Positions 22,100-23,220 of a stretch of DNA of 64,000 bases are shown piece after piece. Each line of letters begins with the position of its first letter. Positions within the stretch are counted from its first letter, which is position 1. The stretch comes from Burkholderiales bacterium. Its GTDB lineage: Bacteria > Patescibacteriota > Minisyncoccia > Phycocordibacterales > UBA9973. A program made the position numbers and the translations under genes. The DNA lies in the NCBI GenBank assembly GCA_023701005.1, contig JAMPXW010000001.1:35769-99768 (forward strand), written 5' to 3'. The notes under the pieces are model-generated. The model was given only the letters and a program-made list of their open reading frames with translations. It was not told where the DNA came from and made no database searches.

Positions 22100-22128
22100 T
22101 TGATTTTTTTGAAGAAATATGGTATACT
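22100..22128 (+). promoter_or_regulatory. sigma70-like promoter: -35 TTGATT, 17-bp spacer, extended -10 TGgTATACT
   Basis: Seen directly about 70 bp upstream of the CTD-protein start. A GGAGG RBS lies 5 nt before the ATG at 22196. Confidence 0.5.
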
Positions 22129-22195
22129 CTTGACAGTTAAATAAATTGTTTCCTTGTAAATTCAATAAAAAAATAAATTACCTATGGAGGTAAAA

Positions 22196-23107
22196 ATGAA
22201 AAAGTTATTTCTTTTCGTAGTATTGTTGTACTCTTCTGCTTACTCTCAATGGGATTGGGATGCAGATAAACGTGTTGCTGTAGAAAACGGATGGCAGACT
22301 GGTGTAGAATTTTTACAATTCTACAAACCATGGGATCCAATGAATACATCTGTTAATATGAACAACAAAGATTCTATTGGGGAATTTTCTACTGCCGGGG
22401 GTTCTATATTTTTTGCTGAAAAATGGGTCGGGCAAGGAGTGTTTTTTAAAAATACTCCAAACTTACCTGTTCCAGACTATGTAACACTTGAAGTATGGTA
22501 TTTATATAGCAATAATGTAAATTCTGTAAACAGAGTTACACTCAACTTTCAAATTCAGTCTCAAACTTGGACAATTGCACCTAGTACAAATGAAACAAAC
22601 CCACTCAATGGTTCCAAAATGGTATATACCTGGGACTTAAGAAGTGTTCGAGAAAAGTTATCTCCTGGAATAATAAGAGTATATTTATTACCAAAAACCA
22701 CAGTGAGTGACTCTTGCAAAATAATTACAAAAATTGGAGTAAGAAATCTAACTTTCATTTACTCTGATGGAAGCAAAAAGGTGATAGATTTTGATTTCAC
22801 TGGAACTGACGTTCAAAACGAACCGACAATTCCAGAAAAATTTGAATTAAGTCAAAACTATCCGAATCCTTTCAACCCAACAACAAAAATTCGTTACTCT
22901 GTACCTATTGAAGCAGGACCTGTTACATTGAAGGTCTACGAATTAGCAACAGGCAAAGAAGTTGCTACTCTTGTTGATGGAGAACAAAAAGCTGCTGGCA
23001 TATACGAAGTAAATTTCGATGCTAGCAACCTTGCGTCAGGAAGATATTTCTATACAATTCAATCAAAGAATTATATAGAAACAAAAAAAATGATCCTGAT
23101 GAAATAA
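22196..23107 (+). CDS. secreted protein with T9SS-type (Por secretion system) C-terminal sorting domain; likely start is the second ATG
   Basis: Signal peptide [18 protein letters not shown]. C-terminus [21 protein letters not shown]...[59 protein letters not shown] matches the Por_Secre_tail (TIGR04183) consensus. Confidence 0.7.
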   Translation: [303 protein letters not shown]

Positions 23108-23180
23108 TCCCCACGGATGATTCCGTAGTGTGTGTTCTTTTTTTAATTTTAGAGAGTAAAAATGTTCGATTCAATATTGT

Positions 23181-23220
23181 GAGCCGTATGTGATCTAATC
23201 GCAGACGGCTCTTTTTTTTA
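23181..23220 (+). terminator. rho-independent terminator GAGCCGT...ACGGCTC followed by T8
   Basis: Seen directly after the CTD-protein stop. Confidence 0.6.

Follow-up and report, generated by a model that had tools for sequence, protein, structure and literature searches.

A type IX secretion sorting domain on a small, predicted secreted protein in a variable surface locus of Candidatus Nomurabacteria

What role does the tail of a type IX secretion system (T9SS) cargo have in a cell without T9SS? This question is raised by a gene in a stretch of 64,000 nucleotides of contig JAMPXW010000001.1 (assembly GCA_023701005.1), which is called the window in the following. The gene encodes a protein of 303 amino acids that ends in a T9SS type-A C-terminal sorting domain (CTD). 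Such a domain is usually taken as a signature of diderm bacteria of the Fibrobacteres-Chlorobi-Bacteroidetes (FCB) group, and as a signal it is regarded as meaningless without an outer-membrane translocon. An earlier note on this DNA had described the product as a secreted protein with a T9SS-type tail. It offered two explanations, either the horizontal acquisition of a cargo gene, seen as a stand-alone cassette, or an origin of the contig from an unusual reduced FCB-like lineage. The CTD was confirmed, the host is an ultra-small bacterium of the Candidate Phyla Radiation (CPR), and horizontal acquisition turned out to be the right class of explanation. The explanation that we favor, with some reservation, is that of a small lectin-like secreted protein from an FCB-derived T9SS cargo family, which moved into Candidatus Nomurabacteria and kept its CTD for a role other than sorting.

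For the identification of the tail we used profile hidden Markov models (HMMs). PF18962 (Por_Secre_tail) matches the last ~80 amino acids with 35.7 bits (gathering score 27, E 1.1e-8) over profile positions 2-74 of 75, and TIGR04183 matches the same region with 32.2 bits (cutoff 23) over positions 2-70 of 72. The matched region covers amino acids 226-304 of 307 in the numbering of a slightly longer open reading frame (ORF). The protein ends with TKKMILMK directly before the stop codon and thus contains the KKM.L.K motif of T9SS tails. The motif residues of the CTD, including the final K, are invariant columns in the family alignments. The type-B tail CHU_C reaches only 11.5 bits, far under its threshold, and PF13860 (FlgD_ig) shows no match to the protein at E<=1. 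In the AlphaFold2 (AF2) model, which was built from an alignment of 14 sequences (mean pLDDT 79), residues 229-301 form a six-strand beta-sandwich with a pLDDT of ~82. A solved Por CTD, 8glj_D, was also matched in a profile comparison, but weakly (E 0.26), and this match is not significant alone. In a word-indexed database search, 7350 proteins were found at E<=1e-3. The matches to the CTD only are 55-66% identical, and every organism-named one among them is from the class Ignavibacteria. The N-terminus starts with MKK, a stretch of 12 letters and Y-S/Q; this was read from the sequence as a predicted signal peptide, and equivalent N-termini are present in all family homologues that were aligned. 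Score, C-terminal position, fold with motifs and predicted signal peptide, the four domain-level characters of a T9SS type-A CTD, are all found in this protein. Both models were passed above their cutoffs over nearly their full length, and these profile scores, far beyond chance, make the tail a genuine member of TIGR04183/PF18962. The description as a secreted protein with a T9SS-type tail is therefore kept. The automatic annotation at NCBI already names it a T9SS type-A sorting-domain protein, under a wrong taxon.

The lineage of the contig was determined from its housekeeping genes. The polynucleotide phosphorylase (PNPase) of the window is 80-86% identical to PNPases named Candidatus Nomurabacteria, Candidatus Paceibacterota or Patescibacteria group, and NusA is 80-91% identical to NusA of Nomurabacteria/Paceibacterota-type metagenome-assembled genomes (MAGs). 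The gene order PilB...NusA-(H+-PPase)-trigger factor-ClpP-RNase Y is common to ~20 such MAGs. Identities and gene order place the contig in Candidatus Nomurabacteria/Paceibacterota, within the CPR. Two proteins of the window, MCM2338880.1 (22196-23107) and MCM2338883.1 (25703-26860), are named "Burkholderiales bacterium" at NCBI. Judged by the same genes this label is wrong, and the MAG is mislabelled or mis-binned. A Pfam scan of 57 ORFs of the window revealed a repertoire typical of CPR, including a PilB/PilC/pilin operon without secretin. The window also encodes ComEC, RecJ, PGK, TIM, SHMT, SOD, RNase Y and a LexA-like S24 peptidase, and further ComM, PNPase, a XerC-like integrase, TrmB, a CCA-adding enzyme, Fur, ZIP and a LysM-M23 peptidase. 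Genes for Bam, Lpt, Lpx or T9SS proteins were not found among these 57 ORFs. The earlier impression of Patescibacteria-like surroundings with no T9SS component in the window is thus correct, and an unusual reduced FCB-like lineage as source of the contig was rejected on account of the PNPase and NusA identities and the synteny. To our knowledge, CPR cells seen by cryo-electron microscopy have no outer membrane, and CPR genomes do not contain genes for the biogenesis of lipopolysaccharide (LPS) and outer-membrane proteins (OMPs). Hence the whole genome would be expected to encode neither a T9SS nor an outer membrane.

The gene is not restricted to one assembly. In the Logan assembly of SRR23907158 an identical gene is present in the same context, and members of the family occupy the same locus in at least four other Nomurabacteria-type contigs (L002, L004, L005 and L130). 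Two of these, L002 and L130, carry two copies each. L002 (GCA_023267215.1, a contig of 325,137 bp) is a diverged relative: compared with the proteins of the window, identity is 85% for its PNPase (P0123) and 88% for both NusA and H+-PPase. Its gene order is RecJ-HIT-PGK-TIM-giant protein-family member-NYN-second family member-PemK-radical SAM (rSAM)/SPASM...NusA. In L004 the order is giant protein-family member (52% identical)-...-GIY-YIG-NusA, with 98% identity of NusA in the stretch of 50 residues that the contig contains, and in L005 the N-terminus of the giant protein is followed by a family member. L130 was obtained from Hainich groundwater (0.1-um filter fraction). NusA of this contig shows 87% identity to that of the window, and an rSAM/SPASM gene lies between its two family members. 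On this contig nusA is split into two ORFs (L130:929-2177, minus strand), possibly by a frameshift or an assembly error. In L087 and L088/L089, the neighbors of family members match giant proteins of Paceibacteria. By comparison, HMMs of the CTD and of the N-terminal domain gave no match in 23 related Patescibacteria NusA loci (~0.4 Mb), which keep PilB and NusA around a variable interval of giant surface proteins. Since members occur in diverged relatives and none in these 23 loci, the gene has, as far as this comparison reaches, a patchy distribution and belongs to the content of a hypervariable surface locus.

The earlier note had seen an acquired stand-alone cassette; a recent stand-alone insertion is not what is found here. 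The GC content of the gene is 0.344 compared with a window mean of 0.324+/-0.037, and its GC3 and tetranucleotide profile are typical. In synonymous codon use it ranks 23rd of 57 genes and does not stand out. The composition is, however, of little help for the question of origin, because the candidate donors are equally AT-rich.

The family was defined by an exhaustive profile search with the N-terminal domain in 1.84 billion representatives, which revealed only 92 clusters. Together with the members from earlier searches, 97 sequences were collected. 94 of these 97 carry the CTD and almost all are 280-310 amino acids long, so that the architecture of the family is fixed across the sequences collected. 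A word-index search with the N-terminal domain returned only the protein itself, and pattern scans for this domain in GTDB species representatives and JGI metagenome contigs did not find the clade of the window at pattern level. A scan of viral contigs (IMG/VR) revealed no family member and thereby no evidence for a phage as vector. 37 viral or proviral loci (L090-L126) match the CTD only, with 28-56% identity. P0036 in L006 was considered as a family member and rejected as a relative by its CTD only, since its N-terminal part is 15-21% identical and was missed by the profile search.

Outside the CPR, family members were found in two diderm, FCB-like contexts. L003 contains three glycoside hydrolases with CTDs, a SurA/PpiD-like gene and an NtrC-type sigma-54 activator, and L127 contains BamA and a protein with a GWxTD domain. 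CTD-bearing ORFs were counted with an HMM built in the analysis. Four are located in 20 kb of L003, three of them on unrelated proteins (the glycoside hydrolases), and four in 10 kb of L006, unrelated proteins among them. In the CPR loci, all CTD-bearing ORFs belong to this one family: one in the window, two in L002 and two in L130. The presence of CTDs on many unrelated cargoes, which characterizes functional T9SS substrates, was thus not observed in the CPR loci examined.

A bootstrapped neighbor-joining (NJ) tree of the N-terminal domain divides the CPR copies into three fully supported clades. Clade A consists of the copies of the window, L004 and L005, clade B of the two L002 copies and L087, and clade C of the two L130 copies and L088. 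At 95% bootstrap, clade C and the diderm copies form a group that excludes A and B. The CPR copies are not monophyletic in this phylogeny, and the gene therefore appears to have moved between CPR and FCB-type groups more than once. According to the tree, at least two inter-phylum transfers, or a transfer of already diverged paralogues, would be needed. The direction was probably from FCB to CPR, since the CTD arose in the FCB group, where thousands of unrelated cargoes carry it, and occurs in the CPR loci examined on this family only.

In the CPR copies the CTD is not visibly decaying, since it is conserved like the lectin-like domain. Within CPR pairs, the identity of the CTD compared with that of the N-terminal domain is 64 vs 67%, 49 vs 54% and, for the L002 paralogues, 67 vs 40%. 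The CTD therefore seems about as conserved as the N-terminal domain or more so. Synonymous sites of the CPR copies are saturated at 50-65% amino-acid identity. The two parts of the protein also differ in their relationships. The CTD of the window protein reaches 69-73% identity with the CTDs of P0007, P0008 and P0004, compared with 49-53% for the CTDs of the proteins that are its sisters by the N-terminal domain, and between P0003 and P0257 the CTDs are 80% and the N-terminal domains 21% identical. This discordance points to an exchange or homogenization of tails between cassettes.

The N-terminal domain gives a hint on the function. In the AF2 model a low-confidence signal-peptide helix (residues 2-20) is followed by a confident beta-jelly-roll across residues 21-200 (pLDDT ~90) and by a linker, residues 203-227, with a pLDDT below 50. 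The jelly-roll can be superimposed on characterized carbohydrate-binding modules (CBMs), with CBM4/11/15/22/27/28/29 and the surface glycan-binding proteins of Bacteroides (SGBP-B) among the folds compared. The sequence identity of the domain to its structural matches is 4-15%. In contrast to the CBMs and SGBP-B, the protein has no Pfam or CBM membership at sequence level, no glycoside hydrolase partner and no lipoprotein anchor. Its N-terminal 220 amino acids show no match in Pfam or NCBIfam at E<=1, and PDB sequence searches gave nothing significant.

From these observations the following course of events is proposed. The family would have arisen as T9SS cargo in FCB-type diderms, where its closest CTDs are Ignavibacteria-like, and would have entered a sublineage of Candidatus Nomurabacteria by more than one transfer. 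There the protein would be exported by Sec alone, as its signal peptide suggests. On the basis of its fold, it may act as a non-catalytic protein at the cell surface or outside the cell and bind polysaccharides of a host or of the environment, and its conserved position would be in line with an action alongside the adjacent pilus and giant-adhesin genes. As a signal for outer-membrane translocation the CTD would be of no use in the CPR cell, in view of the lineage and the lack of other cargo. Its retention, and its exchange between paralogues, may instead be due to another role of this folded Ig-like domain, for example as a spacer, in oligomerization or as a binding partner.

Several points weigh against this explanation. 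The screen for T9SS and outer-membrane genes covered 64 kb of a contig of 277 kb. Glycan binding is suggested by similarity of fold, and the fold matches of the jelly-roll include non-lectins such as phage baseplate proteins, MAM domains and a complex I assembly factor. The trees are NJ trees on ~184 columns with deep, long branches. The FCB origin is deduced from the overall distribution of the CTD and from two diderm contexts, and a transfer from CPR to FCB is possible for this particular fusion. Finally, folding constraints alone could account for the conservation of the CTD motifs.

Four other explanations were considered. The gene may be a functionless hitch-hiker, that is, a recently acquired T9SS cargo gene which is useless without T9SS and awaits decay. 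Its patchy distribution among Nomurabacteria species would agree with this, as would the toxin-antitoxin and mobile genes in the variable region of relatives (PemK and NYN in L002, HicA and AbiEii in L130). However, all seven CPR-context copies inspected are intact despite an identity of 19-54% in the N-terminal domain, and the composition is fully ameliorated. At least five contigs of different sample origin keep the locus, two genomes have retained paralogues, and the gene of the window has its own ribosome-binding site and terminator. We regard a hitch-hiker as unlikely.

Still less probable is a mimicry at the interface with a host, in which the Nomurabacteria cell would live as an epibiont and its Sec-secreted lectin would be caught through its CTD by PorV/PorU on a T9SS-bearing host of FCB or Ignavibacteria type, by docking or covalent anchoring, so that the host is tethered or tagged. 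The CTD would then be kept as a handle for recognition of the host. No CPR copy has lost any of the CTD motif residues, and conservation of the CTD equals or exceeds that of the N-terminal domain; constraints of the fold could, however, account for this conservation. The transfers between CPR and diderms appear repeated in the tree, the nearest organism-named CTDs are all from the class Ignavibacteria, and the gene is located beside type IV pilus (T4P) genes and giant surface proteins. On the other side, a CTD in the established T9SS pathway reaches PorV at the translocon coming from the periplasm, and we know of no report on the capture of an exogenous CTD. In cultivated Saccharibacteria, host attachment is driven by T4P according to PMC9894109 and PMC11623550. 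A search of the available literature library for T9SS CTDs in CPR or Patescibacteria found nothing relevant; the "CPR" in PMC7323717 is the CpREV substitution matrix and has no relation to CPR bacteria. If mimicry were true, the gene exchange between CPR and FCB would record a partnership and name the host clade for an uncultivated CPR group.

Very improbable is an ordinary cargo protein, with an outer membrane and T9SS encoded elsewhere in the genome or in a reduced FCB lineage. In favor of it are the fully canonical CTD and the limitation of the inspected sequence to ~64 kb. Against it stand the housekeeping genes, which are 80-91% identical to those of Nomurabacteria/Paceibacterota, the lack of any Bam, Lpt, Lpx, secretin or T9SS gene among the 57 window ORFs checked and the limitation of CTDs in CPR loci to one family, unlike the multi-cargo loci L003 and L006. 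The 23 related NusA loci, screened with the CTD and N-terminal HMMs only, gave no match, and the general lack of an outer membrane and of genes for LPS and OMP biogenesis in CPR also argues against an ordinary cargo. The last possibility, that a gene of FCB origin was joined to a CPR contig by an error of assembly or binning, has the wrong taxonomic label as a hint of imperfect curation. It is effectively refuted, since the gene is embedded among CPR genes with matching composition and the same arrangement was found in a second assembly and in L002, L004, L005 and L130 from other samples.

The favored explanation, an FCB-derived cargo protein with a retained tail, can be compared with several known systems. 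T9SS type-A cargo is exemplified by RgpB of Porphyromonas gingivalis and by many Ignavibacteria proteins annotated as T9SS type A sorting domain-containing proteins. The protein of the window resembles them in its signal peptide, in the ~80-amino-acid beta-sandwich at the extreme C-terminus, in HMM scores above the cutoffs and in its motifs. It differs from them in being encoded in Nomurabacteria, with no T9SS or outer-membrane genes in the scanned ORFs, and in being the sole CTD-bearing family in the CPR loci examined. Because of this host and this sole CTD family, the CTD is most likely no signal for translocation or sortase here.

A second comparison is that with the loci of T4P and giant proteins that are implicated in the attachment of CPR episymbionts to their hosts. 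The gene is located like the genes of such loci, between nusA on one side and the PilB-PilC-pilin operon and a 1357-amino-acid protein with CARDB and Ig-like repeats on the other, but its product is small and neither a pilin nor a repeat adhesin. A role in attachment is therefore suggested by the position of the gene. The third is the "choice-of-anchor" concept of NCBIfam, in which one domain carries alternative C-terminal sorting signals across lineages. Similar to this concept, a secreted module is combined with a lineage-specific tail, and a choice-of-anchor R protein is encoded in the adjacent T4P operon. In contrast to it, the T9SS tail was kept in 94 of 97 sequences after the move between lineages, without a swap to a monoderm anchor such as LPXTG. 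What is new here is that a known sorting domain and cargo type is maintained and exchanged where its cognate machinery should be absent.

The features of the gene and its surroundings are listed in the table. The mechanical ORF (22184..23107, plus strand) is 12 nt longer at its 5' end than the 303-amino-acid form. ATG 22196 (MKKLF...) is the likelier start because GGAGG lies five bases upstream, and it is also the start in the NCBI annotation. The earlier note had credited the gene with its own ribosome-binding site and terminator and with a strong promoter. The first two are indeed present, and the terminator is convincing: the 121-nt 3' region around it has a fold z of -3.3. For the promoter, the hexamers are there. 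The strength, however, is not supported, as the consensus match is of a common kind (11 promoter-like sites in this AT-rich stretch compared with 6.4+/-2.4 in shuffles), so that the site is suggestive and weak evidence. The gene is monocistronic, divergent from the 1357-amino-acid surface protein and convergent with a downstream gene of 258 amino acids, for which neither a family match nor a counterpart in L002 was found.

Table: Location of the gene, its parts and control elements and the adjoining genes in the window (1 to 64,000)
Feature	Coordinates	Strand	Remarks
Type IV pilus operon: PilB, PilC, three pilin-like genes, 585-aa protein	11555..17835	-	one border of the variable locus
1357-aa giant surface protein, CARDB domain, repeated Ig-like modules	17901..21974	-	divergent from the gene studied; conserved neighbor of the family
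Promoter-like TTGATT-17 nt-TATACT with TG extension	22100..22128	+	9/12 consensus matches, TG before -10
Shine-Dalgarno sequence GGAGG	22186..22190	+	5 nt before ATG 22196, read from the sequence
Coding sequence, 303 aa and stop	22196..23107	+	NCBI protein MCM2338880.1 (P0001)
Predicted Sec signal peptide	22196..22249	+	A-x-S before putative cleavage (Y-S/Q), no lipobox Cys
N-terminal beta-jelly-roll resembling CBMs, ~180 aa	22256..22795	+	AF2 model, fold matches
Predicted disordered linker	22796..22858	+	AF2 pLDDT <50, residues 203-227
T9SS type-A C-terminal sorting domain	22859..23104	+	PF18962, TIGR04183, AF2 beta-sandwich
Intrinsic terminator GAGCCGUAUGUGAU-CUA-AUCGCAGACGGCUC, then U8	23181..23219	+	minimum free energy structure, 7+6 bp hairpin
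nusA	25703..26860	+	other border of the variable locus

Homologues of the giant surface protein, whole or partial, are located upstream of a family member in L002, L004, L005 and L087. The divergent pair of giant protein and family member may reflect a joint travel or a joint function. An Ig-like module is repeated in the giant protein of the window at amino acids 108-201 and 719-812. It also occurs in a divergent neighbor of 362 amino acids in the FCB-like L003 (8702-9826, minus strand; 44% over 96 amino acids) and in L087:3-788 (minus strand), divergent from the family member there. The 585-amino-acid protein at the distal end of the pilus operon (11555-13312, minus strand) contains the choice-of-anchor R domain NF041539 (37.1 bits, cutoff 30).

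Some further observations were made in the window. A radical SAM/SPASM maturase (24245-25513, minus strand) is followed by an ORF of 27 amino acids (24134-24217) with the Cys-rich end MIKMKKVSIARIKPVINNSASCCTSCK, and the two are a candidate pair for a ribosomally synthesized and post-translationally modified peptide. The rSAM/SPASM gene recurs in the variable locus of L002, followed there by an ORF of 49 amino acids, and of L130. The H+-pyrophosphatase (H+-PPase; 26947-28977, minus strand), 88% identical to that of L002, is ~48% identical to the plus-strand enzyme after nusA in L009, L012, L014 and L016-L020, which represent most related Nomurabacteria loci. This suggests a replacement by a different PPase type. 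An IS200/IS605-type Y1 transposase (31737-32405, plus strand) lies between trigger factor and ClpP, and similar copies are found at other positions in L012, L019 and L027. Four tRNA genes (Gly-GCC, Arg-TCG, Pro-TGG and Gly-TCC) are grouped around a UPF0102/YraN-like nuclease gene at 58267-59520.

The wrong taxon label of the NCBI record hides the CPR context of this protein. Matches to TIGR04183/PF18962 are unsafe as sole markers for taxonomy or for a T9SS. A canonical CTD sits here inside a variable pilus and adhesin locus, a kind of locus to which functions of host contact are ascribed in CPR bacteria. A gene passed repeatedly between CPR and FCB-type bacteria would give a testable clue to the partners of these uncultivated epibionts.

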